64,000 nucleotides of DNA from a virus (lineage: Duplodnaviria; Caudoviricetes), in IMG/VR virus record IMGVR_UViG_3300028833_000067, positions 32,001 to 96,000 of that record; one strand, 5' to 3'. The notes beneath the pieces were generated by a model that saw nothing but the letters and a program-made list of their open reading frames with translations, had not been told where the DNA came from and did not search any database. Of the stretch, positions 36,726 to 58,929 are shown one piece after another. A program made the translations under genes and the position numbers. Each line of letters opens with the position of its first letter. Positions within the stretch are counted from its first letter, which is position 1.

Positions 36726-36937
36726 GGTTTTACCAGATATGACAAATGTAACAGATTCGTAACAATTGTAACAATTGCGTCACAAACCCTGGAAGCGTTG
36801 ATTTATAAGGCTTCCAGGGTTTTTTGGATGTATAACATCCAAGTGTTAGCCGTGACTAACTCAGCCGTTTTATGGTATAATCTGGTCAGGAGGTGGGGGA
36901 AATGTTACGAAAGTGTTACAAATGCATTGGAAGGTGG

Positions 36938-37122
36938 GATACCTCAGCAGGCGAGGTACCTCAGCAGATGAGATACCTCAGTAGGCGAGGGCGCGCTCGC
37001 GCCTATACGGATGCGCGCCCTGCCCCGGGTATATATAGGCGCCGGCGAGCTGCAAGCTGGGAGCTGCAAGCTGGGAGCTGCAAGCTGCGAGCTGGGAACT
37101 GCGAGCTGGAAGATGTAAGCTG
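36938..37122 (+). repeat. 3x TACCTCAGYAG followed by 7-bp RAGCTGN tandem repeats
   Basis: Read directly. Confidence 0.8.
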
Positions 37123-37138
37123 GAAAGGAGCTAAAACA

Positions 37139-37324
37139 ATGCTAATAATGGGAACTGGGTTTGTGCTGGGCGGGTTGGTAGCTGGAAGCTTCGCCCCACT
37201 CAAAATGGTCGCTGTGTGCGAGTTAATCGGATGGGCGTTAATGGGTGTGGCCGGACTAAGAGCCGAACAGAAAGAGCGCAAGGCCGCACAAAAATTAGCA
37301 ATGTATCCAACCTATAAATATTGA
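37139..37324 (+). CDS. Small membrane protein, 61 aa
   Basis: AAGGAG RBS, two hydrophobic segments, downstream hairpin. Confidence 0.6.
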   Translation: MLIMGTGFVLGGLVAGSFAPLKMVAVCELIGWALMGVAGLRAEQKERKAAQKLAMYPTYKY

Positions 37325-37374
37325 GCGCTTCGGCGCTCTTGTACTTTTGGATGTATCACATCCAAAAGAAATAG

Positions 37375-37403
37375 TTGACAAGCATATTTATAAGTGTTAT
37401 ACT
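37375..37403 (+). promoter_or_regulatory. Representative cassette promoter
   Basis: TTGACA-17 bp-TATACT, 9 bp after the palindrome at 37347-37365. Confidence 0.9.
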
Positions 37404-37454
37404 TGTATCATCAAAAGGGAAGGAAAACCTACCAAACCGGAAAGGATTGAAACC

Positions 37455-37742
37455 ATGAAAAAGACCATCGTAATCATCACCGCCACCATGCTCCTGCTCT
37501 CCCTTGTTAGTGCCGCAAGTGCGGAGCTTTATCCCACCACTGCTATGGTTTGCCGGGTGGATCGGGAAAGTGATTTAGTGTACTGCAAAGAATGTAATGG
37601 TAACATCTGGGCGTTTTTCGGGGTTGAAGATTGGGAAGAGGGAGACTTAGTCTCAATGATCATGGATGACAACGACACTGAATTGATCTATGATGACATG
37701 ATCTTACAAGTGAGATACGGTGGATATGTTGAGGGGTTTTAA
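37455..37742 (+). CDS. Secreted acidic protein, 95 aa
   Basis: Signal peptide MKKTIVII...AASA; cassette context. Confidence 0.75.
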   Translation: MKKTIVIITATMLLLSLVSAASAELYPTTAMVCRVDRESDLVYCKECNGNIWAFFGVEDWEEGDLVSMIMDDNDTELIYDDMILQVRYGGYVEGF

Positions 37743-37877
37743 CCCCTCTTTTTTTTGTTATGGGGCTTTGGATGTAATACATCTAAAACATTCGTTTGAC
37801 AAATATATATATTTATTGTATACTTGTATCATCAAAGAGGGAAGGAAAACCCACCAAACCAGAGAGGAAGGAAGAGC

Positions 37878-38015
37878 ATGAAAACGGTTGAGATGATGAA
37901 GTGGAACAAAGGTTACTACGTGACCATGCGGCAGGGATGTAATGTCCAGCGCGAATGGGTCAAGACAAAGAAGGCCGCCGAAATTCTCATGAAAAAGTGG
38001 CAAAAAGGGGAATAA
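37878..38015 (+). CDS. Hypothetical, 45 aa
   Basis: Cassette promoter, RBS and terminator. Confidence 0.7.
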   Translation: MKTVEMMKWNKGYYVTMRQGCNVQREWVKTKKAAEILMKKWQKGE

Positions 38016-38117
38016 TCCCCTTCTTCCCCTTTTAGATGTATTACATCTAAAACCTTGTGTTGACAATTGAATATTTCTATAGTATACTTATGCCATCAAA
38101 TGAAGGAGGTTACTACC

Positions 38118-38330
38118 ATGAAGTATTTACTGATGAGAGAATATGAAACCATGAAAGTTTATGAACTTGACAACGTGATTTATAAGAAGATTGAATACAA
38201 ACTTGTTAAACTTACAGGTAGCGAACTGATAGCAAAAAAACTGATGCTCAAGTTTGGCTCTCTCACTGTTCAACAGCTTAGTTGCAATTCTCAAATCAAT
38301 ATTTTCGACTGCTTTGAGATTCTCGGATAA
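38118..38330 (+). CDS. Hypothetical, 70 aa
   Basis: AAGGAGG RBS; cassette context. Confidence 0.7.
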   Translation: MKYLLMREYETMKVYELDNVIYKKIEYKLVKLTGSELIAKKLMLKFGSLTVQQLSCNSQINIFDCFEILG

Positions 38331-38451
38331 ACCGAGAATCTTTTTATTTGTGAATTTAGATGTATTACATCCAAAATATGGGATTGACCTTTTACAAATA
38401 ATGAGTATAATTATAATTGTTCCAAGGGGAACAGAAAGGAAGGAAAAGAAC

Positions 38452-38613
38452 ATGTATTACTGGATGCATAAGGAATACGGGCACATCGTACCGGAAAACA
38501 AGCTTTGGGAAGATGCAGAAGAATTGGGCTATGATGACATTACCGACCCCTGTTCTGTTGAATACGGCAATTTCAATTTGTATTATGAGAAGACAAATAT
38601 GGTGGTCAACTAA
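38452..38613 (+). CDS. Hypothetical, 53 aa
   Basis: Cassette context. Confidence 0.7.
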   Translation: MYYWMHKEYGHIVPENKLWEDAEELGYDDITDPCSVEYGNFNLYYEKTNMVVN

Positions 38614-38724
38614 CCACCATATTTTTATATAAATACTTTTAGATGTAATACATCTAATTTTTGCTCTTGAACATTTTCCATGACAATGTTATAATAGGGT
38701 ATCAAATGAAGGAGGGATTATCCA

Positions 38725-38886
38725 ATGTCTAACTATGCCGAAACTTTCGCCAAGGAACTCGAAAAGAATCAGCGCATCCGCGAACTCGCCGAAAAGAACG
38801 ATTCTCCCGAGGGCCTCACTGATGCCGAACTCGATGAATTCGTCCGTTTGATTGACCGCATTGCATACAATTTCGGGAGATATTAA
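38725..38886 (+). CDS. Hypothetical, 53 aa (MSNYAETF...)
   Basis: Below the track cut-off; AAGGAGG RBS; cassette context. Confidence 0.7.
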   Translation: MSNYAETFAKELEKNQRIRELAEKNDSPEGLTDAELDEFVRLIDRIAYNFGRY

Positions 38887-39013
38887 TCTCCCTATTTTTA
38901 TTACATATTTTAGATGTAATACATCCAACTTTGCTCTTGACTTTTCATGATTTTATATGTATAATTGGGTTGTACCCAAGGAACCCAAACAAAAGAAAGT
39001 GAGGAACGAAAAC

Positions 39014-39253
39014 ATGAAGACCACAGTAAGAGCCCACGTAATTATCCCGGATTGCTATCTGACTATTCAGCGGTTATATGATGATGGGAAATTCTTCCGT
39101 CTTGAGGAAGAAGTCAAAACGGGAGAAGACGCCGCCAAATTTATTGAAAGATTGCTTGCTCAGGGTGGACGTTTACTCGATGCTCACGAATTTGTTGACG
39201 ATGATGATTTCAAGACAAAACTTTCTGCAACTTTTGAGTATATCTCCAACTAA
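39014..39253 (+). CDS. Hypothetical, 79 aa
   Basis: Cassette context. Confidence 0.7.
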   Translation: MKTTVRAHVIIPDCYLTIQRLYDDGKFFRLEEEVKTGEDAAKFIERLLAQGGRLLDAHEFVDDDDFKTKLSATFEYISN

Positions 39254-39359
39254 GGCCCACGGGCCTTTCTTGTTTTAGATGTATTACATCCAAATTCTCC
39301 TATTGCAATTACAGCATATCCATGCTATAATAAGGCATCAAATGAAGGAGGCGCTGACC

Positions 39360-39668
39360 ATGATCAATATTCGGACAATTCGGAAACTGCAGGAAAATGA
39401 CGGGCTTACTCTGAAGGCCGGGAAAATCATCACTTACAAAACCGGGTGGCAGGTTGCCGACTATGGTTATGAGCTGGCAACAGCTGAGGAAGCAATCGCT
39501 TGTGTTCGCAAGCTGGGCGGCAACTGCGGCATTTGGTATGCCGGCGGCATCTACTATATTGATCATTCTTTCCGTATCAGCACCAAACGGGAAGCATTGG
39601 AAATCGGCCGCAAGTTTTCTCAAATTTCAATTTTCGGATGGAAGACACAGAAACTTGCATATTGCTAA
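39360..39668 (+). CDS. Possible SAM-lyase-like protein, 102 aa
   Basis: GxW...DxS...AxxxGxxFxQxSI pattern. The ORF is solid; the function is tentative. Confidence 0.4.
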   Translation: MINIRTIRKLQENDGLTLKAGKIITYKTGWQVADYGYELATAEEAIACVRKLGGNCGIWYAGGIYYIDHSFRISTKREALEIGRKFSQISIFGWKTQKLAYC

Positions 39669-39807
39669 ACACAGCGCCCGAAACCGGGCGCAATTTCATT
39701 TTCAAAAGTTGGATGTATAACATCCAAAACTTGCTCTTGCACTATTCCCGAAAGTATGTTATTATATACTTGTCCGAAGGGACAATAAATAATGGAGGGA
39801 TTTCATT

Positions 39808-39975
39808 ATGGATAATATTAAAGTTACCTATGAACTTCGGCGGCATGATTCTTCCCGTTTCCATGGGTGGATTGTGTGGGAATGTTCTGATGGTATGGAA
39901 TCAGTGTATTTCCAGTCAACTTCTCTTACAGAAGCCAAAGCAGTCTTTAATGATTTGCACGCCGAAGTTTTATAG
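39808..39975 (+). CDS. Hypothetical, 55 aa, ends in TAG
   Basis: GGAGG RBS; TAG lies in the loop of the terminal hairpin. Confidence 0.7.
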   Translation: MDNIKVTYELRRHDSSRFHGWIVWECSDGMESVYFQSTSLTEAKAVFNDLHAEVL

Positions 39976-40054
39976 ACTTCGACCTTTCTATTTGGATGTA
40001 TAACATCCAAAATCCCCTCTTGTGCTTTTCCTCAAAAGGTGATAATATATACTT

Positions 40055-40350
40055 GTTCCGAGGGGAGCGCGGGCAGAGCCCTGAAGCGGGTGTGACCCAT
40101 GTGAGTCAGTAAGACCACGCGCGATGAACCGGCCGCACGCCGAAAGAGCGAGATGGTGCGGGATACACAGTGGCGAGCTGTGGGGTCAGCTGGAGCTGGC
40201 TTAAATGTCGAGGCAGCACCTGCAGGGGACTGAAACAGGCAGGGATTCATCTCGTGAAGACCTCCCCTTCCCGTTAGCCGTAGGGAAAACGGTGGAAAGC
40301 CGTTGAAATCGGTTAGAGAATCCCGGCGAAAAAAGTACCCGGGATTTTCG
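40055..40350 (+). ncRNA. Structured ncRNA, copy 1 (family not recognised)
   Basis: Own palindrome and promoter, GC-rich, no RBS/ORF, terminal hairpin, covaries with copy 2. Confidence 0.75.
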
Positions 40351-40425
40351 CTTAACTGCCTTTTGGATGTATAACATCCAACTTTACTGCTTGCTTTTTC
40401 CCTTCAAAAGTGATAATATATACTT

Positions 40426-40720
40426 GTTCCAAGGGGAGGGGCGGCGAAGCCGAAGAGGTGCGACCCACGTGAGTCCGTAAGACCGGCCCCCGATGAACCG
40501 ACCGCGCGCCGAAGTCCTACTGCGCGGTATACGGGGTGAGGAACCCCGGGGTCAGCTGGGCTGGCTCAAATGTGCAGGCAACAACAGGGGAGCGTCTGGG
40601 ACCCCGGGGCTGGTAGGATGGACGCAAGGGGTGGTAACCCGCCCGGCGAAGAGCCGGACTCAAGGCCGCAAGTGGGCGGATGAATAGCCAAGAGCGGATA
40701 ACAAGTAATCCGCTCTTTTT
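40426..40720 (+). ncRNA. Structured ncRNA, copy 2 (family not recognised)
   Basis: As copy 1. Terminator GAGCGGAT...ATCCGCTC-TTTTTT. Confidence 0.75.
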
Positions 40721-40839
40721 TGTCGTATACATTTGGATGTATAACATCCAATTTAAAATTTGACAAACCCCATGGGCAAGCGTATAATCATAAGTGAAAA
40801 GAGGGAAGGAAAACCCGTTAAACCAGAAGGAGAACGGAC

Positions 40840-41079
40840 ATGGAAAAGACTCTTAATACTTACCTTGATGTGAGCATCTATATCTCTCATACCAGTGAGT
40901 ATCGCGCCGGCCGTATCTACACCAACAATGAGATTGCAAAGCTGGATCTGCATCTGGATGTCCCCTATGAGCAGGCGAAAAAGGAGCTTGCTCGTCTGAT
41001 GCTTCGCACCGGTAAGATGCCCAAGGTTCATCACGGTTCTACCTCTACCATGTATTCCCTCGCCGCTTTTCTTGATTAA
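40840..41079 (+). CDS. Hypothetical, 79 aa (family A)
   Basis: Cassette context. Confidence 0.75.
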   Translation: MEKTLNTYLDVSIYISHTSEYRAGRIYTNNEIAKLDLHLDVPYEQAKKELARLMLRTGKMPKVHHGSTSTMYSLAAFLD

Positions 41080-41210
41080 GAAAGTATACCCCTCTTTTGA
41101 GGGGTATACTTGTTTTAGATGTATAACATCCAAAATAATGATTTGACATATATAATAATATATGATATTATAATAACGTCCTAAGAAGGACAGAAAGAGA
41201 GGAAAAGAAC

Positions 41211-41444
41211 ATGAGAATTGGAAGAATGGTTATTGATACGGACAATATGAGTATTGAGGACATGGAAACCGTTATCCGCGAAATGCGCGCTATTCGCGCC
41301 CGCAAGCTGAAAGCTGAAGAGCTGAAGACCCGGATGCTTGAACTGATCGCGGATGCCAAAGAAAACGGTTTTACCTTCATTGACAAAGATTTCGGACAGG
41401 TTTGGACAGGTAATGATTTTACACTTTATGACGAACGGACTTAA
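41211..41444 (+). CDS. Hypothetical coiled-coil protein, 77 aa
   Basis: Cassette context. Confidence 0.75.
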   Translation: MRIGRMVIDTDNMSIEDMETVIREMRAIRARKLKAEELKTRMLELIADAKENGFTFIDKDFGQVWTGNDFTLYDERT

Positions 41445-41575
41445 GCGCCTTTAGGCGCTTAGGATATTTGGATGTATAACATCCAAAAGTCGCTCTTGCA
41501 ATTTCCTAAAATAAGAGTATAATTATAGATGAAAAGAGAGAAGGAAAACTCACCAAACCGGAAGGAGATTTAATC

Positions 41576-41818
41576 ATGAAGAAGTATATGGCAGTTACCG
41601 TAACTACTGGCAATAACTCTTGTATTAATAGTGCTTATCTCTATTATTCTGATGAGGAACTGGGATTGGAAATTGCTACTGTCATCTCTTATGAAGAAGG
41701 AATGAAGCAGTTGCGCCAATTGGAAAAGCGTCTGGGCAAGCCCGCACAGATGAAAATCAATCAGTTTGACCGGGAAATTGTTTACAAAGAACTGTACGGG
41801 TTCCTTGACCGGGAGTAA
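41576..41818 (+). CDS. Hypothetical, 80 aa (family A)
   Basis: Cassette context. Confidence 0.75.
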   Translation: MKKYMAVTVTTGNNSCINSAYLYYSDEELGLEIATVISYEEGMKQLRQLEKRLGKPAQMKINQFDREIVYKELYGFLDRE

Positions 41819-41936
41819 TCCCGGTTCATTATATTTGGATGTATAACATCCAAAATCAATGCTTGACATATCATATATGTATGATATAATGATATTGTCC
41901 TAAGGGACAAGAAATAAAAGAAAGAGGGATTTGAAC

Positions 41937-42218
41937 ATGAGTTACATCACGAAAAGCAACAACGGTCACGAATACGCCAACACCTATGTCCGGATTTTTG
42001 ACGACAACACCGTTCAGCTGGTAAGCTACACCACAACCGTGATTGAAATCACGCCGGACGGTTGGCTTTCCTGCAATGGGCTGTACAGCATGACCACTAT
42101 TAAACACATCGGCTGGTTCATGCGGGAACGTGGCTTTTCCTACTACCTTGCCAAACAGCTGTATCTTGACAATAAAGAGTTCAACGTATACACCGGCGAG
42201 TGCCGGGACCGGGGCTAA
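41937..42218 (+). CDS. Hypothetical phage early protein, 93 aa
   Basis: SYxTxV...YSxTTxKHIxxF motif; cassette context. Confidence 0.75.
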   Translation: MSYITKSNNGHEYANTYVRIFDDNTVQLVSYTTTVIEITPDGWLSCNGLYSMTTIKHIGWFMRERGFSYYLAKQLYLDNKEFNVYTGECRDRG

Positions 42219-42343
42219 TACCCCGGTTTTCTTTTATACTGTATTTGGATGTATTACATCTAAAATTCATTCTTGACTTTTCCCTTATATATGCTATAAT
42301 GATATTGTCCTCAGAGAGAGGAACAAGAAAGGAGATTAAAACA

Positions 42344-42583
42344 ATGTACCTGTTCTATGCTGATCGCACTGGTTGGATTCCTATGGGGAATGATGGACAG
42401 CTTGTAGTGCCAAAGTGTATTCGGTCTCGCCGTGCCCTGCTGAAGCTGGCGGAAAGCTTTCTTGGCAATAGAGCTGGTCGGGTATACCTTATGAACAGCT
42501 GGACTCAACAGATGTGCGAGCTGGGCCCGCGTGCTTTTGAAGAGTATATTGCACGCCACGGAGAGGTTGTGATGTATAAATGA
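42344..42583 (+). CDS. Hypothetical, 79 aa
   Basis: AAGGAG RBS; cassette context. Confidence 0.7.
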   Translation: MYLFYADRTGWIPMGNDGQLVVPKCIRSRRALLKLAESFLGNRAGRVYLMNSWTQQMCELGPRAFEEYIARHGEVVMYK

Positions 42584-42753
42584 TTTCCTGTTTTAAATTA
42601 TCCCGTCCACCGCCCACGGATACTACTCTTGGGCGGTAAAACTTTATTTTCATATTTGGATGTATAACATCCAAAAACTGCTCTTGCAATTTAGCGTATC
42701 TTCTGATATACTATAGATGTTCCAAGAGAGGAACAGAAAGGAAGGAAACGAAC

Positions 42754-42999
42754 ATGAATAAGACTTATATCAGCATCAGCATTACTTACTACTCCACCAA
42801 ATGCATTACTCCTGATATCCACTATTACAGCGATGATGGAATTCATCCCGTAACCTCCACTTGGAATAAGCTGACCGTAAGCGAAGCTAACAAGCTGATG
42901 TGGGAACTGGTCAAGCTGGGCGCGAAAAATTCCTATACCGCCAATATGTTCGACAATGGCATCAGTGAACGCCGGGTTACCTTCTGGGGATTCCTGTAA
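42754..42999 (+). CDS. Hypothetical, 81 aa (family A)
   Basis: Cassette context. Confidence 0.75.
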   Translation: MNKTYISISITYYSTKCITPDIHYYSDDGIHPVTSTWNKLTVSEANKLMWELVKLGAKNSYTANMFDNGISERRVTFWGFL

Positions 43000-43158
43000 A
43001 AAAATATCCGCCCTATGGGCGGATATTTTTATATCTTATTTTGGATGTATAACATCCAAAAAGATAATTTGACTTTTATTCTAAAATATGATATTATAAT
43101 CATGCGGAAGGGAGAGAAACCTTCCAAGATGAGAAAAAGAAAGGAAAGGGATAGCACA

Positions 43159-43398
43159 ATGACAATGACTATTGAAAAGAAACTGAGAGATTTCCACTTC
43201 TGGGGCGGTGCCGCAACCAATGCCGCTAAGCTGACTCCCGAAGAGCTGGACGCGCTGGAAAACCAGCTGGAAGAAATTATCGGCGATGAAGAGCCTTGGA
43301 GCACCACGGAAGTCAATGACTGGATGTGGTTCGACTTCGAAGATATCTGCAAAGACTGGCTTGGAATTGACTATGAGGAAGTTATGGCAAGGGAGTAA
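43159..43398 (+). CDS. Small acidic protein, 79 aa
   Basis: Cassette context; rich in D/E and Trp. Confidence 0.75.
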   Translation: MTMTIEKKLRDFHFWGGAATNAAKLTPEELDALENQLEEIIGDEEPWSTTEVNDWMWFDFEDICKDWLGIDYEEVMARE

Positions 43399-43521
43399 TC
43401 CCTCGCCTTAATTTCATTTCATATTTTAGATGTATAACATCCAATTCTATCGTTTGACATTCTTCCCAATTCATGCTATTATATATTTGTCCGAAGGGGA
43501 CAAGAAAGGAAGGTAAGACAA

Positions 43522-43707
43522 ATGGATAACCGCTTTATGATGACAACCGCTTATTCAGACTGTTCCGTCAAGGGCGAGCATGGAAATGATTTAATGTTCC
43601 TTCTCCGCGCAGCTGCAATCTACTGGGAAGACCCTGATTGCGAGTATATCCATATCTGGGATAAAGAAAATGGAAAAGATATACTATCTTTCTCCCGGCC
43701 CCATTAA
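43522..43707 (+). CDS. Hypothetical, 61 aa
   Basis: Cassette context. Confidence 0.7.
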   Translation: MDNRFMMTTAYSDCSVKGEHGNDLMFLLRAAAIYWEDPDCEYIHIWDKENGKDILSFSRPH

Positions 43708-43814
43708 GGGGCTTTCTATATTTGATGTATGACATCCAATATATGGACTTGACTATTATTCTATATGTGATATAATGATATCGTTCCAAGAGAGAACAGA
43801 AAGGCGGTAGCAAG

Positions 43815-44042: not shown

Positions 44043-44044
44043 GC

Positions 44045-44269: not shown

Positions 44270-44502
44270 TTTCATTTTATCCTAATTTGGATGTATGACA
44301 TCTAAAATATTCTCTTGACTACATTTCTAAAGTATGATATGATATCAGTGTTGAAAGGGACGGGTTCAAGAGCATGAACCTTAAAGCGGTTAGCATAACG
44401 CATTGTCTGAAACACCGAAAGATACGGAGTAGGTTAAATATATTGACTGAAGCGAAGCCGCCGCCCCAATCACTACCAACTATTATTAAGCTGGAGGGAA
44501 AA

Positions 44503-44691: not shown

Positions 44692-44813
44692 TCCCCGGCA
44701 ACTTTATTTAGATGTATAACATCCAAATAACACTATTGATTTTCTCATAAGTATATGATAATATATAATTGTTCCAAGAGAAAGAAAACCACTAAACCAG
44801 AAAGGAAATGAAA

Positions 44814-45095: not shown

Positions 45096-45230
45096 AGCCT
45101 TTTTATTTTAGAATAAATACACATTATTCTAATATCACATTTTTATATTTAGATGTATAACATCCAAATAACGTTATTGACTTTCCCATTACTTCATGGT
45201 ATTATATGTACATGAAAAGGAGGTACTACC

Positions 45231-45835: not shown

Positions 45836-45929
45836 TTCCCTTCTTATAGTTTGGATGTATTACATCTAATTTTATTATTTGACAATTATCTAATTTTATT
45901 ATATAATGCTAATGTAAGGAGGGGATATT

Positions 45930-46264: not shown

Positions 46265-46279
46265 GAGGAGAGATTGGGA

Positions 46280-46848: not shown

Positions 46849-46960
46849 TCCTCCTATCTAATTTGGATGTATAACATCTAAAATAATATATTGACATTCC
46901 CATAACTATATGATAAGATATCATTGTTCCGAGAGGGAACACGAAAGGAGATTGAAAGAT

Positions 46961-47523: not shown

Positions 47524-47647
47524 TCCCCTTGGAATAGATTTAGATGTATAACATCCAAATTAAATAATTGACTTTTTCCAAATTTTGAGTATAATAATAA
47601 TTGTTCCGAGGGACAAGGTGAGGAACCCAACAGAAGGAAATGCTACT

Positions 47648-47719
47648 ATGAAGGCGCCAATTATAGATAGCAGGAAAATGTGGCTCGCAAACATCCGTAA
47701 CCTCGTAACAAAAAAATAA
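47648..47719 (+). CDS. Possible 23-aa peptide MKAPIIDSRKMWLANIRNLVTKK
   Basis: Only ORF in this cassette; AGAAGGA RBS. Confidence 0.35.
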   Translation: MKAPIIDSRKMWLANIRNLVTKK

Positions 47720-47838
47720 CAGATTTAATGCTTGACAAAAAGCAAAAAATCTGATATAATAAAGATGTTCCAAGAGGAAACAAAAATTTGTGCAGGGTGG
47801 TCTGCCGAAACTAAACCACTGAGAAAAAAGGAGTAATT

Positions 47839-48327
47839 ATGACTAACGTAGAAATCCTCAACACTATTCTGTCTATCCCCGGTGCTAACATGGCTCGTGC
47901 CAACAAGACCAACTTTATTGTTATCCCTACTGATGAAGGCTTCGTGAAGGTTGCCGTTTCCAACGCTCTTGCGAAGGATACCAAGGCCCACAAGGCTTTT
48001 AATGCCGAAGCCGCTATTGCCGAGTATAAGGCTTATGAAGCCGAAGTTGCTCTGCGTGAAGCCGAGAAGGCCACCAAGCCCGTCAAGGTTCGTGGCGTGA
48101 ATCCCGAAGCGCAGGCTCGGCGTGATGAGCTTGACGCTAAGATCGCCGCTCTTCCTTCCTTCACCGAGTACACCGCTACCGATATTCTGAAGGCCCTGTC
48201 TGGTCAGGTTGCCGAGAATGTCACCGTGATGGCGGTTGGCCAGAGCGCGAAGCGCCTTGTCGAGAATGGCGTCCTTACGGTTGGTAATCGTGAAGGCGAC
48301 AAGAAGTCCTATTACACCAAGGCTTAA
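47839..48327 (+). CDS. Protein with C-terminal winged-helix-like domain, 162 aa
   Basis: TATDIL...VGQSAKRLVENGVL...KKSYY; strong RBS. Confidence 0.65.
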   Translation: MTNVEILNTILSIPGANMARANKTNFIVIPTDEGFVKVAVSNALAKDTKAHKAFNAEAAIAEYKAYEAEVALREAEKATKPVKVRGVNPEAQARRDELDAKIAALPSFTEYTATDILKALSGQVAENVTVMAVGQSAKRLVENGVLTVGNREGDKKSYYTKA

Positions 48328-48483
48328 TATGGTGTAATCTCCGTACACTCCCCTTCTGATAGAAGGGGAGCTATTTTATTTTCAATTATTTAGATGTTAT
48401 ACATCCAATTTTATTTCTTGACTTTTCCCTTAACTTCTGTTATACTAAACATGCTCAAGAGAGAGCAGAAGGAGTGAAGAAAA

Positions 48484-48939: not shown

Positions 48940-49016
48940 TCCCCTTTTAATGTTTTAGATGTATAACATCTAAATCTAATACTTGATTTTTATTAAAATT
49001 ATGTTATAATATAATT

Positions 49017-49247
49017 GTTCTAAGGGATGAGGACTTCCAAGACCACACATCACGGACTTCCTACATCGCCGTTAGACTGGGTGGTTTGAGGCAGTACTTC
49101 CGCCGAGCGAATAAAAAAAGGGGATTGCTGACGCTTTGCTGCGATGGGCTAGCATGTTCTAAATAGGTAGAACTAAACTCGGAGCCATCATAAGGGGAGT
49201 GTGTGTTGCCCTTATGGAAATTAGGCATGATTAGAGTGCCTAATTTC
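49017..49247 (+). ncRNA. Candidate ncRNA, about 230 nt
   Basis: Palindrome, promoter and terminator with no credible ORF; several stems. Confidence 0.5.
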
Positions 49248-49374
49248 ATTTTGTTGACTTAGATGTATAACATCCAATTATAGACCTTGCAATTTTCCTA
49301 ATATATGGTATACTATCATTGTTCCGAGGGAAGACGGAACAAAAGAAATAAAAAAAGAGAGAGGAATTAAAACG

Positions 49375-50358: not shown

Positions 50359-50483
50359 TCCGTATCCCAATTTCTTTTTAGACTATTTGGATGTATTACA
50401 TCCATATTTAAAATTTGACTTTTTATATAACTTCTGATATACTTGTATTGTTCCAAGAGAGGAACGGAAAGAGAGGAACTGAA

Positions 50484-52058: not shown

Positions 52059-52210
52059 TATAAGGGGAGTTAGACTCCCCTAATTTTATTTTTATATATT
52101 TAGATGTATGACATCCAAAATAATCGTTGACAAATCCTATAATTGATGATATACTATCTACGAAATAAGGGAAGGAAAACCCAAGACAAACCAAAAGGAG
52201 TTTTTGTTGA

Positions 52211-52969
52211 ATGTCTGATTACGCCCTGATTCTGGATACTGAAACCACAAGCCTTGACAAGCCTTTCTGCTATGATTGTTCATGGGTTATCATGCAGAAA
52301 GCTGATGGGAAACTGATTGATTTTAAAGCGAATGTGGTTGAACAGGTTTGGCATAATCTGCCCCTGTTTGAATCCGCGTACTATAAGGAAAAGCGGCAAA
52401 AGTACGTTCAGATGATGCGAAAGCATGATGCCACAATGGATAAATGGGGTTACATCATGCGTAAGCTGAAACAGGATATTATCAAGTACGGAATCGAAGA
52501 AGTGTATGCCTATAATTCCGATTTTGATGATAAAGTGATTGCCTATAATTGTGATTGGTTCAAGTGCAATAACCCCCTTGAGAATGTCGCTGTCTATGAT
52601 ATTTGGGGATATGCAAGCGAATTTATCACGGGTGATTCTGATTATCGTGCTTTTTGCGAAACCTACGAACGCTTTACCGATACTGGAAATTACAAGGGGA
52701 GCGCCGAAGTGGTTCATCAGTTTCTGCTGGATGACCCGGAGTTTATCGAAGAACACATGGGCTTGTTTGATTCTGAAATTGAAGCAAGTATTCTGTTTGA
52801 ATGTGTGAATCGTGGCGCTGAATGGGGCAAGAATTACAAGGTAAATAAAGTGTTGGCTCGTCCGATTCTTCACCCCTTCACCATTAAGATTGACGGAGTT
52901 GAAGTTTATAGTGGTGAATACGTGAAGAAGTTTGTGCGGTCGGATGTGTACAATTTCAAGAGCAAGTAA
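52211..52969 (+). CDS. DEDDh 3'-5' exonuclease
   Basis: LDTETT, AYNSDFD, HMGLFD. Confidence 0.85.
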   Translation: MSDYALILDTETTSLDKPFCYDCSWVIMQKADGKLIDFKANVVEQVWHNLPLFESAYYKEKRQKYVQMMRKHDATMDKWGYIMRKLKQDIIKYGIEEVYAYNSDFDDKVIAYNCDWFKCNNPLENVAVYDIWGYASEFITGDSDYRAFCETYERFTDTGNYKGSAEVVHQFLLDDPEFIEEHMGLFDSEIEASILFECVNRGAEWGKNYKVNKVLARPILHPFTIKIDGVEVYSGEYVKKFVRSDVYNFKSK

Positions 52970-53072
52970 AAAGGTGGGACAGAAATGTCCCACCTTTCCC
53001 CATCTGATATTTGGATGTTAGACATCCAAATCAAATAATTGACTTTTACTGAAATTCTGTTATAATATAATT

Positions 53073-53203
53073 GTTCCAAGGGACAAGAGATTCCCCCCTC
53101 TGAGGCAGGAAGCCGAGTACGTAAACTGCAGTAAGTCGTACAAAAGAGCGAATCTCAGGGTTGATGTCCTCTCGCCCATTAAGCGAAACATTAACCTTGG
53201 AAA
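53073..53203 (+). ncRNA. Candidate ncRNA, about 130 nt
   Basis: ORF-less cassette; TTCCAAGG/CCTTGGAA and GAGATTC/GAATCTC pairings. Confidence 0.45.
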
Positions 53204-53302
53204 ATTTCAAAAAACCTCTTGACAAACCCAAGAATCCATGATATAATAACTACGAAAGATGAAGAGAAGGAAAACTCTTACAAAACCAGAAAGGATACCG
53301 CT

Positions 53303-53623
53303 ATGAAGAAAGCGTCTATGGAAACCCTCATCAACTACATCGACAACCACAATCTGACCGACCTGTTCCCCATCAAGGATGAACTGACCGCCGAACTGTC
53401 CAAGGGTAAGGCCAAGGCCGATGCGAATCGGGCTTTGTATGATGAGTACCATGACAAGGTTGTCGACGCTCTGAGCAAGGCTTCCGCTCCCGTGACTGCA
53501 CAGGAGATTGCGGATGAAACCGGAATTGCTCGTGGCAAGATTGTATATGGTCTGACCAACTACTGGAAGTCCGAAGTGGTTCGGGATGATTCCGGTAAGA
53601 CCGCCACTTACACTCTTGCGTAA
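53303..53623 (+). CDS. Winged-HTH protein (family B), 106 aa
   Basis: PVTAQEIADETGIARGKIVYGL; paralogue of 56893-57219. Confidence 0.75.
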   Translation: MKKASMETLINYIDNHNLTDLFPIKDELTAELSKGKAKADANRALYDEYHDKVVDALSKASAPVTAQEIADETGIARGKIVYGLTNYWKSEVVRDDSGKTATYTLA

Positions 53624-53786
53624 TCCCCTTCCCACCGCCCTACAGGGCGGTTTTCTTTTAGGCATACTTAGATGTAAGACATCTAAAATTGTATCCAAAA
53701 TACATAGTTGACAAAAGTCAAAATTTATGATATAATTTTTTCAGAAACAGGAGAAGGATACTCCATAAACCAGAAAGGATATGCGT

Positions 53787-54128
53787 ATGGCAAGTAAGGC
53801 AAGTTTGGAAAATGCGCTTCGTGCAGAGATTCTGGAAGTTATTACTAATGCCCTGTCTGAACACTTTGATGTCGATATTATTACTGTCGGAAGTGGCGAA
53901 ATTTCTCTTCCTCTGACCGATGCGGAAGGGAACGAAAAGTATCCCAAGATTAAGGTTTCTATTCCTCGTGGTACTCGCAATGGTGAAGGCGGTTATATTC
54001 CCTATGATGGATATAACGCCGCCGAAGAGTACAAACTTGAACAGGAAAGCAAAGTGCAGGAACGCGCCGTTCGGAAAGCCATGAAGGAAGCCGAGAAGGG
54101 AAAGAAAAAGAATGATTCCGAAGAGTAA
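53787..54128 (+). CDS. Hypothetical (family C), 113 aa
   Basis: Cassette context. Confidence 0.75.
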   Translation: MASKASLENALRAEILEVITNALSEHFDVDIITVGSGEISLPLTDAEGNEKYPKIKVSIPRGTRNGEGGYIPYDGYNAAEEYKLEQESKVQERAVRKAMKEAEKGKKKNDSEE

Positions 54129-54324
54129 GGTTTGGTATAAGAAAGGACAGGCAAGAGCGTGCTCGGCACTCTCTTGCTATGCCCTAAAACTTGAACTTCA
54201 TGATGGAACTATTGTTGATGGCTATTACTATTGTAGACAATTCTATTCCGGCTATGAAAAAATAACTAATGAAGTAAATCGGTGGATGATTCCACAAGAA
54301 GGAGAAAGCGTTAGACTTAACTAA
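54112..54324 (+). CDS. Hypothetical, 70 aa
   Basis: Overlaps the previous gene. Confidence 0.55.
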   Translation: MIPKSKVWYKKGQARACSALSCYALKLELHDGTIVDGYYYCRQFYSGYEKITNEVNRWMIPQEGESVRLN

Positions 54325-54461
54325 CGCTTGAATAACTTGGATGTTATACATCTAAAACTTTCTCTTGCTTTTTTCATAAAAAGTGATATAATATAATTGT
54401 TCCAAGGGAACGGAAGAAAAACGAGAAGGACACTCGATAAAACCAGAAAGGAAATACTGGT

Positions 54462-54878
54462 ATGAAGATGAATCTGGACATGAGCTTTGAAGAAGGTCTG
54501 AATGTTATGGAAGCCCTGCGTAAGTGCGCCATTAAAAATGGTTGGGATGAAGATGAATTAGATGAGTGCGGAGTTCTTGAAGAATATGCTTCCGCCGTGG
54601 ATGCCGCTCTCGCTGCTATGGGTATCGCCGCTTGTATCGACCTTGACAGCGAATCCGAACTCAAAGTCGAAGATGAAGACTTCGATGATGAAGATTGGGA
54701 TGAAGACGAAGAAGATGACTACTTCGATTCGGATGATGAAGATGTAGAAGAAGATGACTGTCCGTATACTCTGACTCCCAAGGGTGAGTTTATTGTACAT
54801 GCTCTTGAAGCGGGCGTTTCTTTTGAAAATGCTTGTGAACTTGCAGATATTTTGTTCGATGATAACGAAGGCGAGTAA
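54462..54878 (+). CDS. Extremely acidic protein, 138 aa
   Basis: EDEDFDDEDWDEDEEDDYFDSDDEDVEEDD tract. Confidence 0.8.
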   Translation: MKMNLDMSFEEGLNVMEALRKCAIKNGWDEDELDECGVLEEYASAVDAALAAMGIAACIDLDSESELKVEDEDFDDEDWDEDEEDDYFDSDDEDVEEDDCPYTLTPKGEFIVHALEAGVSFENACELADILFDDNEGE

Positions 54879-54982
54879 TCGCCTTCTGCTCATTTAGATG
54901 TCTAACATCTAAAATATCTCCTTGACTTTTCTTTTAGATATGATATAATGTGTATGAACCAAGAGAGAAAGGATGATGAAGA

Positions 54983-55333
54983 ATGGCGAAGGTTACGAAG
55001 AATATTGTGGATAAGGATTTGCGTGAAAAGGTCTTTGAAGATTTGATGGACTTTACTTCTGGTGGTTCTGATTATGATTATACGAAAATCAATGACCGTC
55101 AGTATGGCGTTCTCATCACTGATTTGAATGGCGTTCAGCGCTATTGCCGTATTGGCGTTATCGTTGCCGAAGAACGTGAAGACATGACTGCCGAAGAATT
55201 GATGCAGTCCGAGATTGCCGCTTACAATGCTAAGCAGGCAGAGAAGGAAACCAAGGCTCAGGCTCGCGCCGAAAAGGCGAAAAAGGACAAGGAGCGTCGG
55301 GCGAAGGAAAAGGAGGAAAAGGAAAATGAGTAA
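54983..55333 (+). CDS. Hypothetical (family C), 116 aa
   Basis: Cassette context. Confidence 0.75.
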   Translation: MAKVTKNIVDKDLREKVFEDLMDFTSGGSDYDYTKINDRQYGVLITDLNGVQRYCRIGVIVAEEREDMTAEELMQSEIAAYNAKQAEKETKAQARAEKAKKDKERRAKEKEEKENE

Positions 55334-55517
55334 ATTGAAAATGTATCGGGAAGCCCTTGTGGAAGTTAATGACAATGGTGAAAGATATATTAGTCATATC
55401 CCGTGGTCAGACTTTATCACTGAACGTATTTTGAATTTGTTTGGGAAAATTGACTACCAGCGGCCTTTCTCCATTCGCCTTTTGATGCCATGGGAATGGG
55501 AAATTAGTAAAAGCTAA
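55326..55517 (+). CDS. Hypothetical, 63 aa
   Basis: RBS within the previous gene. Confidence 0.6.
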   Translation: MSKLKMYREALVEVNDNGERYISHIPWSDFITERILNLFGKIDYQRPFSIRLLMPWEWEISKS

Positions 55518-55576
55518 AACGAAAAAGATTGCTAAAAATAAAGAAAAGCATGAAAATGAAAGGATGGAAAAAGAAA

Positions 55577-55765
55577 ATGTTTAGTGAAGAAAAGTGCCCT
55601 AACTGCGGTTCTGAAGAATACACGATTGACAACTATTGGGATGATTTCGATGAAGACGGCGGTATTCGGGTGTGGAACTGTACTTGCCCGAAATGCCATC
55701 AGAAGTTTGATATCACCTATGCGTACAAATGTACGGAGATTAGTGTGGAAGTTAGTGAAAGCTAA
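55577..55765 (+). CDS. Zn-ribbon protein, 62 aa
   Basis: CPNC...CPKC. Confidence 0.7.
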   Translation: MFSEEKCPNCGSEEYTIDNYWDDFDEDGGIRVWNCTCPKCHQKFDITYAYKCTEISVEVSES

Positions 55766-55875
55766 CTTCATTTTATTTACTTAGATGTCAAACATCCAAT
55801 TTATTTTCTTGATTTATCCTAATATCTATGATATAATAGCATTGTTCCAAGAGGAACGGAAAGGATGTATAAGAA

Positions 55876-56046
55876 ATGACGATACGAGAGTTAATTAAAG
55901 AATTACAGAAGTATCCGAAAGACACCAAGGTTGCTACCGATGATGGAACTGGCTATGTCGCTTTTGATGTATATTTAGACTATGATAAATCTTTAAAGCA
56001 GATTGGTATTTATGCACATGGACATGACTATGGAGAGGAAGACTGA
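55876..56046 (+). CDS. Hypothetical, 56 aa
   Basis: MTIRELIKELQKYP; cassette context. Confidence 0.7.
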   Translation: MTIRELIKELQKYPKDTKVATDDGTGYVAFDVYLDYDKSLKQIGIYAHGHDYGEED

Positions 56047-56048
56047 AA

Positions 56049-56225
56049 ATGCGCACGCCACAGCGGAGAAAAGAACGAGCCGAAATGGTTAAAGCACTTA
56101 GTGATATTATTACTAACTGCAATAATGACGCCGAATTTTTTATTCGTCTTCTCTGGGCAAATGAATGGATTAGCAATCAACTATTAACATTTGAAAGCGA
56201 GGAACAGGAAAATGCAGACGATTAA
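56049..56225 (+). CDS. Hypothetical, 58 aa
   Basis: GAGG RBS. Confidence 0.55.
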   Translation: MRTPQRRKERAEMVKALSDIITNCNNDAEFFIRLLWANEWISNQLLTFESEEQENADD

Positions 56226-56469
56226 AAACTGGTTTGGCATTAAGACCGCTTACCGCTTTGAATGGAATGATGTTCGTTGTGGAATTACCCTTTTGAATGT
56301 GATTCTGATTATGCTCTTTGGTCTTCAGGTATCATGGTTCGGCCTTGCTATTGCTGTCTTCGGCGTATGTAAAGACCTTTCACAGCATCGGCATATCAAC
56401 GATGTTCTGATGCACTTGTCAAGCGTTGTTCTTAACCTTTACTTCCTTTCCCTCCTATATGGCGATTGA
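56212..56469 (+). CDS. Membrane protein, 85 aa
   Basis: Three hydrophobic segments. Confidence 0.7.
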   Translation: MQTIKNWFGIKTAYRFEWNDVRCGITLLNVILIMLFGLQVSWFGLAIAVFGVCKDLSQHRHINDVLMHLSSVVLNLYFLSLLYGD

Positions 56470-56679
56470 ACCGCCATATCATATTTAGATGTATGACATC
56501 TAAATTAAACAATTGACTTTCTCTAAATTTGTGGTATACTATAATTGTTCCAAGGGGAGAGAGCGGAACGAGCCGAACCGCAAGGTCGCCTTGTTCTCTG
56601 TCGTAAGGGTTTCAAAATAACTAATAAAAAAGTTTGAAAACCCCTTGACAAACAGCAAATCCTGTGCTATAATAAGGAT

Positions 56680-56790
56680 GTTCCAAGAAACAGGGATGGA
56701 CCTCAACGAGGTGAGAACTAATGGATTGCCATGAAAACTCCCGTTGTCCCAAGGAGTGGAAATGGACAGGTTTCCGCAACTTTCCCTGAT
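56680..56790 (+). ncRNA. Candidate small RNA
   Basis: Own TTGACA/TATAAT promoter; CAGGGA/TCCCTG closing stem; no ORF. Confidence 0.4.
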
Positions 56791-56892
56791 AAGAAAAAAG
56801 TTGCGCCAACTACTTGACATTACACCACAAACGTGGTATAATGAATACGAAACAGGGGAAGGAAAACCCCACAAACCAGAAAGGCATTTATT

Positions 56893-57219
56893 ATGAAGAA
56901 AACTACTCTTGAAACCATCCGCACCGCTCTGACTAACCTTGGTTACACCGATGAAACTGTTCTTGCTGAACTGGACACCGAACTGAGCAAGGGCGCCGCT
57001 GAGAAGACTGCTCGCGCCGCCGAGTATGAGTCCATCCATGATCTGATTATGGAAACTCTGTCCGATACCCCTATTACTTGCGGTGAACTGTGGGAGTCCA
57101 TCGAGGGTAGTGTGCCCGAAGGTATCACCAAGGGTAAGGTACAGTACGCTCTGACCCATCTGTGGCAGGATGAGATCGTCAAGATCACCGGCAAGCCTAA
57201 CACTTACCGTAGGGCGTAA
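56893..57219 (+). CDS. Winged-HTH protein (family B), 108 aa
   Basis: Paralogue of 53303-53623. Confidence 0.75.
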   Translation: MKKTTLETIRTALTNLGYTDETVLAELDTELSKGAAEKTARAAEYESIHDLIMETLSDTPITCGELWESIEGSVPEGITKGKVQYALTHLWQDEIVKITGKPNTYRRA

Positions 57220-57423
57220 GGTACAAAGGTTTCAAGGGGCTTATCCTTAAAACCCCTTTCCAGATAGCGGTCTAAATTGAATGTGTCACGACCCAAAAAA
57301 CATGGAACATTCATCCGAGCCGTAGGATAGACAATTCGGCACATTCCTGCCTCCAATAAAGAGGCAGGCTTTTTTATATAAATAAAATTGGATGTTAGAC
57401 ATCCAATAAATAAATCCTTCGGA

Positions 57424-57750
57424 CTATATCCGAAGGATTCTTTTTATATTATCACAGAAAGTATCCCACCATGTCTTTTCATATTTATAAAAAGTATCAA
57501 CAAAAATGCGATAAATCGGATAAGTAATATCCGGATGTTTAGGATTAAATTTAATAAGCCAAAGTTCTTGCTCTCGTTTATCATTAGAATACGTCCAAGC
57601 CATAGGATGCCATTCTGTTTTCCCTAATTCATGCACAGAATTAAGAATAGTTTTATCTGATAAGTTCCCATTATATTCTATGCCGCCATAAATAATTTCA
57701 CCAGAACCAATTTTAGAGTATATAAGGCGTTTTACTTTAATTACTTTCAC
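57424..57750 (-). CDS. Hypothetical, 108 aa, ends in TAG
   Basis: TAG lies in the loop of the AATCCTTCGGA/TCCGAAGGATT hairpin. Confidence 0.65.
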   Translation of the reverse strand: MKVIKVKRLIYSKIGSGEIIYGGIEYNGNLSDKTILNSVHELGKTEWHPMAWTYSNDKREQELWLIKFNPKHPDITYPIYRIFVDTFYKYEKTWWDTFCDNIKRILRI

Positions 57751-58112
57751 GTTCCCAACACCTGCCTATATGCTATTTCCCAAGCCATATGTAATGCATC
57801 ATGACTTGTCAATTGCTGAGTTTTTCCTGTATAATGCACCAGAAGAGCATTATTTATTTGCTTATATTGTCTTAAATCATCATCGTATGCGGCAACAAGA
57901 TTCAGAATACGTTTCTGATAAGTTTCAATCTCTTGAAGTTCTATATTCTTATCCGACCCATCAGGGAGCATTTCTGTGCTTCCCTTGCATACAATAATCT
58001 TATGGCAGTAAGTTATCATTCTTTGCCTATGCTTGCACAAATTATCTAACAGCCCTTTCATATGGATATCTTCACCGCTCCAAGTATCAGTCTCTTTTTT
58101 CCTTCCAAACAT
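57747..58112 (-). CDS. Hypothetical, 121 aa
   Basis: AAGGAG RBS; minus-strand promoter next to palindrome 58179. Confidence 0.7.
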   Translation of the reverse strand: MFGRKKETDTWSGEDIHMKGLLDNLCKHRQRMITYCHKIIVCKGSTEMLPDGSDKNIELQEIETYQKRILNLVAAYDDDLRQYKQINNALLVHYTGKTQQLTSHDALHMAWEIAYRQVLGT

Positions 58113-58213
58113 ATCTTCATCTCCTTTCCGATTACATACATATTATATCAAAATTAAATAAATAGTCAATAAATTTATTTAGATGTATTACATCCAATTC
58201 CTAAAAGGAGGGA

Positions 58214-58822
58214 TTAGTCCCTACCTTCCGCAATTGCACGAAACATTTCTTTATTGGCAAAAGTATCACACAGTTCATAATAGGTCTCTTCATCAACATA
58301 AAACCATTCTTCTGTATTCTGTGCCACAGCATAGGCATGTTCTGCAATATACTCATGACAGCGTTCTTCAGAATATCTATCTGATTCTTCTGCAGTTAAA
58401 TAAATATTATTATGATAAATCATAGGATTATGACGCACATAGGTCTTAATACGCGCACCAATATCATCAGCCATCCCGACCTTTACACAATAATATTTAT
58501 GATCATCCGGAGTGATGCCAATCATACCAACAAAATACAAGCCTTGCTTATGCGTATCACAATCTACATATGGTATTTTTAATTCGCCCAAACCATAAAC
58601 CGTTTTCTTATAGCCGCCATTATAATGAACACCATTAGCATCATAAGTGTAATATTTTTCTAATGCTCTGCGACAGTTACTATCAAGTGGACGACGAAAA
58701 TCTTGAAAAATTGCATCTAATGCAGTTTGAGAAAGTCCCTCTTCATCTGAAAAGCAATCACACATTTCTTTCCAATGATAGGTATTAATGCGTTCAGCAA
58801 TTTTTTCTTCATAAACAGACAT
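58214..58822 (-). CDS. GIY-YIG/T5orf172-like domain protein, 202 aa
   Basis: GLYFVG...VKVG...R...E...H...EWF; shared cassette leader upstream. Confidence 0.7.
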   Translation of the reverse strand: MSVYEEKIAERINTYHWKEMCDCFSDEEGLSQTALDAIFQDFRRPLDSNCRRALEKYYTYDANGVHYNGGYKKTVYGLGELKIPYVDCDTHKQGLYFVGMIGITPDDHKYYCVKVGMADDIGARIKTYVRHNPMIYHNNIYLTAEESDRYSEERCHEYIAEHAYAVAQNTEEWFYVDEETYYELCDTFANKEMFRAIAEGRD

Positions 58823-58929
58823 AATAAAATTCCTTTCTGGTTTATCAGTGTTTTCCTTCACTTCGTAGATAGAGTATAGCATAAAAAAGAATAAATGTCA
58901 AATCAAATTTTTGGATGTATAACATCCAA

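Follow-up and report, generated by a model that had tools for sequence, protein, structure and literature searches.

A phased 19-bp palindrome as putative operator of the early gene cassettes of a TAG-recoded rumen phage

Results

Organization of the palindrome array

The analysed window comprises 64,000 nucleotides (bases 32001–96000) of a single 176,887-bp virus record (IMGVR_UViG_3300028833_000067), the genome of an uncultured rumen phage that reads the codon TAG as glutamine. Its region 36824–58929 contains an array in which 40 copies of the 19-bp palindrome TTRGATGT-N3-ACATCYAA bound 39 small cassettes, with c1–c37 being directed rightward and c38–c39 leftward. The window contains 38 exact matches, all within the array, at a chance expectation of 0.00 in dinucleotide-preserving shuffles, and two additional copies with one mismatch each (at 43721–43739, TTTGATGT..., and at 50387–50405, ...ACATCCAT). 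A prediction made earlier from the sequence of the window, in the following termed the original prediction, had counted 40 copies in 22 kb and none elsewhere in the window. This count holds and no copy is found outside the array in the entire 176,887-bp genome, even if two mismatches are allowed. The exact 19-mer was not found in the database viral_contigs, neither the array nor the structural region gave a match in nucleotide searches of a phage collection, and literature searches, which were not aimed at the palindrome element, turned up nothing on it. The whole window is without a match in Rfam at the gathering threshold, and at E ≤ 0.1 the array produced two weak matches only, which we take as chance.

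The cassettes share a common plan, which consists of a terminator-like hairpin with a T-run, the palindrome, an A/T-rich gap, a TTGACA-like –35 box, a spacer of 16–17 nucleotides (nt), a TATAAT-like –10 box, a leader, a strong Shine-Dalgarno sequence and a small open reading frame (ORF). In a simple screen for perfect stems, 28 copies were found to have a terminator-like hairpin at most 60 nt upstream, and ten further copies are preceded by hairpins with imperfect stems or large loops that were recognized by eye. These terminators are individual in sequence and not conserved, and their distance to the palindrome varies.

The position of the palindrome with respect to the promoter is fixed. In total, –35 and –10 boxes follow 38 of the 40 copies, and a –35 box starting with TTG is found at a distance of 9 nt at 34 sites, of 8 nt at three and of 21 nt at one. 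In 37 of these tagged promoters such a –35 box (8–9 nt and once 21 nt away) is combined with a –10 box containing at most two mismatches. With the usual promoter spacings, the palindrome thus spans about –63 to –45 and is centred at about –53/–54. On the plus strand, a gap of 9 nt follows the copies at 37347–37365 (leading to TTGACA-17-TATACT), 37768–37786, 38032–38050, 38356–38374, 38639–38657, 39275–39293, 39709–39727, 39992–40010, 40363–40381, 41115–41133, 41468–41486, 41835–41853, 42245–42263, 42656–42674, 43041–43059, 43426–43444, 43721–43739, 44287–44305, 44708–44726, 45149–45167, 45851–45869, 46863–46881, 47540–47558, 48390–48408, 48955–48973, 49259–49277, 50387–50405, 53011–53029, 54337–54355, 54894–54912, 55781–55799 and 56485–56503. 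Among these, the copy at 49259 heads the cassette of an AAA_5 ATPase, those at 39992 (non-coding RNA), 40363 (paralogous to the former) and 48955 head cassettes without ORF, those at 47540 and 53011 precede the first of two tandem promoters in c26 and c32, and the one at 56485 the first of three in c37. The gap amounts to 8 nt at 38910–38928, 40733–40751 and 52100–52118, and the sole gap of 21 nt, at 53668–53686, is kept in the orthologues of two of the relatives described below (G002 and G003). The copies at 58179–58197 and 58911–58929 face minus-strand promoters, the former at 9 nt from TTGACT-16-TATAAT and the latter preceding TTGACA-17-TATACT, with a further TTGACA located 9 nt away on its plus side. 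The phasing of 8–9 nt at 37 sites and both minus-strand promoters bear out what had been proposed on the geometry of the element, including its centre near –54.

The claim that the palindrome heads each cassette promoter applies to most but not to all cases. The leftmost copy (36824–36842, TTGGATGT ATA ACATCCAA) is placed 9 nt ahead of a weak –35 box (GTGACT) that is accompanied by a perfect TATAAT, the copy at 57388–57406 is located between two convergent terminators and has no promoter, and four promoters of perfect consensus within the array, all on the plus strand, are not tagged by a palindrome (47732–47760, driving the gene at 47839–48327; 53219–53247, driving 53303–53623; 56645–56673; and 56814–56842, driving 56893–57219). 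These four contain A-tracts at the upstream position otherwise occupied by the palindrome and are preceded by short untranslated transcripts that lack a terminator. The palindrome therefore marks the first promoter after a cassette boundary, and the A-tracts suggest that something resembling an UP element takes its place elsewhere. Promoters of the sigma-A type outside the array, as for example at genome position 175780, also lack the palindrome.

Conservation of the palindrome is concentrated in its arms, which contain 1.86 bit of information per position, compared to 1.20 in the –35 hexamer, 0.96 in the centre and 0.41 in the nearly random 9-nt gap that separates it from the –35 box. The three central bases, which had been assumed to be free, are biased (ATA in 17, ATT in six, AAT in four and ATG in four of the 40 sites), whereas the proposed conservation of the arms is evident. 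Since the arms are constant next to a gap that is nearly random, the force that preserves them does not act on neighbouring bases, and homogenization by gene conversion would by itself not account for this pattern. Within the arms, the base present at position 3 (R) is independent of that at position 17 (Y), with the combinations G..C, A..T, G..T and A..C found in 13, six, six and 13 of 38 sites, as expected from their frequencies. The 13 A..C palindromes, which contain an A-C mismatch on the plus strand, fold with only –2.9 kcal/mol, in another six of the 38 the A-C mismatch is found on the minus strand, and the range for the element, which is A+T-rich and without T-run, extends from –2.9 to –7.8 kcal/mol. 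From the independence of both positions and the weak folding of the A..C form it follows that selection acts on the sequence of the half-sites and not on base pairing. Dyad symmetry and conserved half-sites without selection for pairing are features of an operator and they fit the site of a dimeric protein, as had been anticipated in the original prediction.

Recoding and the early class of the array genes

The recoding of TAG is manifested in the length of the reading frames in the genome. Under the standard code, 99 open frames contain at least 150 codons, compared to 143 if TAG is read as an amino acid, among them frames of 5240, 3223 and 2647 codons. One of these encodes a tape measure protein of 5227 residues (PhageMin_Tail; window 5249–20932, minus strand), which is a single frame if TAG is read as an amino acid and whose size would imply an exceptionally long tail. 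Two adjacent frames, of 2641 and 3192 residues, resemble fibres or adhesins (with a Peptidase_S74 chaperone and CBM_5_12), and a siphovirus tail protein (Sipho_tail) is also encoded. ARAGORN identified 13 tRNA genes, none of them with a CUA anticodon.

Genes of the array differ from this pattern, as no real in-frame TAG is found in those on the sense strand, compared to 18.8 per 1000 codons in the adjacent late genes; the six TAGs that were counted in array frames belong to spurious or read-through frames. The lack of in-frame TAGs in conjunction with near-consensus promoters of the sigma-A type assigns the array to an early programme that uses the standard code, in agreement with a model proposed for recoded phages (bioRxiv 10.1101/2021.08.26.457843). 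Together with their shared plan, this supports the reading of the units as self-contained early expression cassettes. A single array gene, at 39808–39975 (plus strand), ends in TAG, and reading this codon as glutamine would add 40 residues to its product and carry the frame through the following palindrome and promoter. Nearly all array proteins are without a family match and a description of this cargo as an 'anti-defence arsenal' is a conjecture.

Variants of the palindrome in related phages

We have collected related IMG/VR contigs, which were reached via two array proteins, and included eight further large records as a whole. In relatives that hold the motif, it is confined to a single stretch of about 17–22 kb that adjoins the structural module at its end and thus corresponds in genomic position to the array of the phage described here. 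The palindrome exists in three forms. The A-type (TTAGATGT-N3-ACATCTAA), found in this phage, is shared by G001, G004, G008, G017 and L268; a G-type (TTAGGTGT-N3-ACACCTAA) is found in G002, G003, L009, L015, L019, L021, L022 and five ENA contigs; and a third type (TTAGGTGG-N3-CCACCTAA) in L020 and L264. The changes between lineages are symmetric and concern both arms. In two complete relatives that are more distant, the early promoters also form arrays but are preceded by different elements, which are a long A+T-rich dyad around CCGG in G012 (40–64 kb, L226–L227), and GCCGGC together with A-tracts and some copies of AGTTAGT-N4-ACTAACT in G013 (12–31 kb, L234–L235). About one third of the G002 sites have a centre of only 2 nt and thus a length of 18 bp, and it is the promoter-proximal arm that keeps its distance to the –35 box.

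The comparison with the close relative G003 is particularly informative. In all twelve out of twelve orthologous cassette heads, the flanking regions are near-identical, whereas positions 5 and 15 of the palindrome are A/T in this phage and G/C in G003. Within this genome, the same two positions are fixed, while positions 3 and 17 are polymorphic. As only the palindrome has changed in the twelve pairs, a sequence-specific reader with changed specificity provides the simpler account, and the exchange at positions 5 and 15 points to a regulon-wide switch of specificity. An origin by drift and conversion, which would require conversion tracts of 19 bp, appears unlikely.

A contig of 3966 bp that was assigned to a metagenome-assembled genome (MAG) of the Acutalibacteraceae (L116) contains six A-type palindromes within 4 kb and is a fragment of a related phage. 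Its binning offers a weak hint at a rumen or gut Firmicute as host.

Exchange of cassettes between relatives

The content and order of cassettes differ among relatives. From c15 to c38, the order largely follows that of G001, G002 and G003. The left half shows a permuted order, with c7, c8, c13 and c14 of this phage corresponding to c10, c7, c14 and c11 in G003, and for c1–c4, c6, c10–c12, c19, c22 and c39 the four genomes compared offer no counterpart, except for short matches to the repeated heads. Cassette order is thus not invariant. For orthologous cassettes located in different contexts, both limits of the alignable block coincide with successive palindromes or fall just behind them. Copies with an identical 19-mer tend to be found in cassettes next to each other, with P = 0.0004 in G002, 0.018 in G003 and 0.08 in this phage. 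At the right end of the array, the order of elements is palindrome, terminator, minus-strand genes, promoter, palindrome, gene, promoter and palindrome, which is the same in G003 and fits the layout expected from an inversion of a two-cassette block between palindromes, with the promoterless copy at 57388 at its end. The breaks in homology at palindromes and the permuted order support the proposal that the repeats serve as points at which cassettes are gained and shuffled, and we infer that recombination takes place at these sites.

Search for a cognate reader

Two of the proteins that had been nominated as binding partners, at 53303–53623 (106 residues) and 56893–57219 (108 residues, both on the plus strand), are paralogues with 37% identity and credible DNA binders. 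The family of the former has more than 290 members in metagenomes and its profile matches the DNA-binding domain of CodY (E 5e-4). A model of 53303–53623, predicted at high confidence (predicted local distance difference test, pLDDT, of 95), shows a long helical hairpin followed by a winged helix, and its best matches in Foldseek, although weak (E about 0.007–0.06), include the winged helices of CodY, of ArsR/SmtB-type repressors and of AspA. A third protein of 162 residues (47839–48327, plus strand), which has no match in Pfam or PHROG, appears to be related to these paralogues in its C-terminal region, as judged by eye from an alignment. Each of the three genes is preceded by one tagged promoter and one or two untagged consensus promoters, and wherever the region is covered, all three proteins are conserved in relatives that share the palindrome family. 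They may be regulators, or mimics of the DNA-binding domain of the host CodY.

Covariation speaks against these proteins as readers of the palindrome. Their winged helices, and with them the first part of the nomination, are real, but the recognition helices stay unchanged where the palindrome changes. That of the 53303 orthologue does not differ between this phage and G003, those of the 56893 orthologues are identical in G001 (A-type) and G002 (G-type), and in a comparison of 12 arrays, the orthologues of 47839–48327 share an identical stretch in the winged-helix-like C-terminal region between the same two genomes. A third nominee, the protein of 71 residues at 60063–60278, was dismissed, as it shows a weak helix-turn-helix (HTH) match only (E 0.05) and lacks a positional counterpart in G001 and G003. 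A screen for presence or absence specific to the A-type returned only the HTH_36 paralogue at 62382–62681, which is missing from G008; another HTH_36 protein is encoded at genome position 2343–2765. When the proteins common to five complete genomes were screened for columns that distinguish A- from G-type genomes, ClpP, RNA ligase, a DUF7788/VWA protein and PhoH ranked highest. None of these is a DNA binder, and their ranking reflects mosaic ancestry.

The only match to HTH_3 above threshold is a protein of 63 residues of the Xre type, encoded at genome position 176238–176429 within a generally hypervariable segment. Its helix 3 reads SRSHLNK in this phage and G008 (both A-type), SRTHLNK in G002 and G003 (G-type) and S(Q/R)EHLSR in G001, G004 and G017 (A-type), so that the residue at the variable position (S, T and E for types A, G and A) fits in seven genomes. 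We regard this protein as a lead and not as a finding.

When 185,579 species genomes were scanned for the palindrome, the matches listed included scattered single hits at chance level in unrelated phyla, and no known host regulon containing it was among them. The only multi-copy record from a Firmicute among them is the 4-kb phage fragment binned with the Acutalibacteraceae MAG.

Discussion

A putative operator at early promoters

Based on the described properties, we propose that the palindrome is a shared operator for a putative lineage-specific DNA-binding regulator of the early promoters, placed such that it could help or block the alpha subunit of the polymerase, and that the repeated head also serves as a joint for exchange. 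We consider this reading to be somewhat better than even (probability about 0.55). A sequence-specific and probably dimeric protein would bind at about –63 to –45, in the region of UP elements that is normally contacted by the alpha subunit of the host RNA polymerase. This reader is more likely encoded by the phage than by its host, and once bound it would raise or, more likely, later shut down about 38 early promoters of the sigma-A type together. Both its binding and the sign of its effect are deduced from sequence and placement. The head of about 100 bp, encompassing palindrome, promoter and leader, is repeated 40 times and would provide homology by which ordinary recombination could add, remove, permute and invert whole cassettes. 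A farther-reaching version, which we regard as tentative and somewhat less probable than its opposite, assumes a dedicated global early regulator whose specificity has been reset several times, each time with all of the about 40 operators converted on both arms while promoters were left unchanged, thereby creating an orthogonal series of regulators and operators on freely shuffled cassettes.

A number of observations weigh against this assignment. No cognate reader has emerged from the candidate and covariation screens of phage proteins. This phage and G003 have the same DNA-reading half in the 53303 orthologue despite their different palindromes, a comparison of 11 arrays found no column separating A- from G-type in any array protein present in all of them, and G013 contains the Xre-type helix SRSHLNK but none of these palindromes. 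Family searches in the whole genome have detected neither ParB_N nor sigma-70 region 2, and for the HU family a sub-threshold match only. A centre at –53/–54 does not match the position of classical activators, and promoters of the consensus type can do without one. The copy at 57388 lacks a promoter, and four strong promoters lack a copy. The coexistence of centres of 2 and 3 nt in a single genome, as found in G002 and L009, would be unusual for a rigid dimer, and the listed sites in G002 show a bias of nine to one for a C-to-T exchange at position 16 in the proximal arm over the mirror change in the distal arm, with the same bias being present in L009 and L015.

The failure to find a phage protein that covaries with the palindrome could be explained if the site was bound by a host transcription factor, with each lineage copying the operator of an abundant regulator of its host and the lineage differences reflecting different hosts. 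Tail-fibre and distal-tail proteins are only 32–43% identical between this phage and G003, compared to 94–99% for replication genes, so both may infect different hosts. However, the matches listed from species genomes are chance-like and the one multi-copy Firmicute record among them is itself phage-derived, which argues weakly against a host regulon, and we know of no Firmicute regulator with this site. We consider this explanation improbable. The marking of cassette boundaries instead of every promoter, the ending of homology blocks at palindromes, the clustering of identical 19-mers among neighbours, the genome-specific majority form of the non-palindromic centre and the fit of the 57388 copy to an inverted block would all be accounted for if there was no reader, and the palindrome was instead the best-conserved part of a head as in the PeSL (promoter-early stem-loop) cassettes of T4-type phages, being held uniform through concerted evolution and acting as recombination joint and as boundary or insulator between strongly transcribed units. 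Yet conversion tracts would homogenize the 9-nt gap as well, which contains only 0.41 bit, they would not leave positions 3 and 17 polymorphic with 5 and 15 fixed, nor change the palindrome alone within otherwise identical flanks, as observed between this phage and G003, and a recombination joint has no need for a phasing of 8–9 nt on the –35 box. We thus judge this second explanation to be as doubtful as a host factor.

Still less probable, to a degree that we consider it rather remote, is a function as hairpin in single-stranded DNA or RNA, either as N4-type promoter for a virion RNA polymerase or as processing or stability signal on read-through transcripts. Such a hairpin would be in line with the shape of the element (a stem of 8 bp and a loop of 3 nt), with the compensatory nature of the arm changes between lineages, with the ease by which a loop tolerates a centre of either 2 or 3 nt, and with the one-sided C-to-T changes, which would result in G-U pairs on the plus strand. 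Against it stand the A-C mismatches on the plus (13 of 38) and the minus strand (six of 38), which occur at the frequency expected without selection and of which the former fold at –2.9 kcal/mol, and the location of the palindrome downstream of terminators and upstream of start sites, where it would mostly remain untranscribed. Moreover, the three giant proteins are tape measure, fibres and tail protein without match to a polymerase family, although a very divergent polymerase might escape such a comparison, and Rfam returned no match.

Comparison with known systems

The nearest known kind are the PeSL cassettes described for the T4-type phages RB49 and phi1 (Arbiol et al. 2010, PMC2839356), to which the original prediction had aptly compared the array while noting the different motif. 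Both contain many repeated intergenic modules composed of a consensus early promoter of the host type and a terminator, both are found in a variable (hyperplastic) region rich in small orphan genes, and in both the relatives differ by gain, loss and exchange of units between repeats. The stem-loop of PeSLs is itself a stable G+C-rich terminator that is found at five different positions relative to the promoter (PMC2839356). In contrast, terminators in the present array are individual, and the A+T-rich palindrome, whose arms change symmetrically between lineages, is an extra element at one fixed distance from the –35 box. The carriers also differ, the array being found in a long-tailed siphophage whose host is of the Gram-positive type, and not in a T4-type myophage. 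Due to the different nature and placement of the repeat, the array falls outside the definition of PeSLs although it resembles them in its evolution, and the fixed invariant palindrome appears as an added element.

The presence of one short palindrome at many promoters of a single replicon is reminiscent of global operators such as those of phage repressors and the OB sites of KorB, a 13-bp palindrome with 12 copies on the IncP plasmid RK2, and in such sets one protein can control the whole group of genes. The array differs from the KorB sites by the absence of ParB_N from the genome and by 40 copies instead of about a dozen, and from both by the same phasing to the promoter throughout and by the lack of an assigned cognate protein. 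With integrons, it shares single-gene cassettes separated by palindromic sites. However, integron cassettes are promoterless, each ends in an imperfect attC palindrome of 57–141 bp, and they reside next to an integrase gene, whereas the cassettes of this phage are equipped with individual promoters and terminators and with a near-perfect palindrome of 19 bp upstream of the gene. No integrase or recombinase family was found among the array and flanking proteins scanned, with no search of the genome aimed at integrases. The host-takeover regions of the Bacillus phage SPO1 and of Kayvirus/Twort-like phages also contain small early genes with strong sigma-A promoters and terminators between them, and their early transcription is later shut off by phage factors; to our knowledge, no invariant upstream palindrome has been described for either. 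Gp33, an inhibitor of early genes in SPO1, is reported to act on the RNA polymerase holoenzyme and not via an operator (PMC13401047).

If the sites were read by one factor, they would constitute an unusually large and uniform operator set for a phage genome, and a clear example from nature of a regulator that has changed its specificity in concert with all of its sites. The array also provides an entry point to the timing of the early standard-code programme that precedes the code switch in large TAG-recoded gut and rumen phages, and it illustrates how small genes with putative roles in takeover or anti-defence are traded between phages. The cassette head, with its terminator, candidate operator, consensus promoter, 5′ stem-loop and strong ribosome site, might serve as a source of ready-made parts for Gram-positive hosts.

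Additional features of the array and the genome

About 18 of the 40 cassettes contain a stem-loop at the 5′ end of the transcript, just downstream of the –10 box (e.g. 38410–38430, 42720–42745 and 48455–48475), with compensatory stems (GTTCC/GGAAC, GTCC/GGAC and TGCTC/GAGCA), a loop of the AAGRG type and an adjoining polypurine leader, whereas others use a second type of leader (GGGAAGGAAAACC...CAAACCAGAAAGGA). Both probably act as 5′ stabilizers of the mRNA. Strong promoters without ORF are found in the regions 40011–40732, 48974–49258, 47600–47730, 53070–53215 and 56540–56810, the first of which contains c10 and c11, a pair of paralogous G+C-rich transcripts of about 290 nt that are 76% identical over 196 nt. 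These ORF-less cassettes and leaders have no Rfam match. In the first cassette, short tandem repeats (GGTACCTCAGCAG... and GAGCTGCAAGCTGG...) at 36930–37120 precede an ORF encoding a hydrophobic protein of 61 residues.

The segment of about 1.1 kb between the array and the helicase module (58930–60060) contains no convincing ORF but near-consensus promoters at 59741 and 59807. Proteins with T5orf172 and GIY-YIG domains, encoded at window positions 58214–58822 (minus strand) and 63531–64286 (plus strand), resemble homing endonucleases; the former constitutes cassette c39, which is without counterpart in the four genomes compared. Outside the window, the phage encodes, as auxiliary proteins, a formate/nitrite-transporter-like protein (genome 22363–22914), a ClpP protease (170918–171523) and a xanthine/uracil permease (174277–175539), and the genome further contains genes for an RNA ligase, a PhoH/PIN protein and a nucleoside deoxyribosyltransferase.

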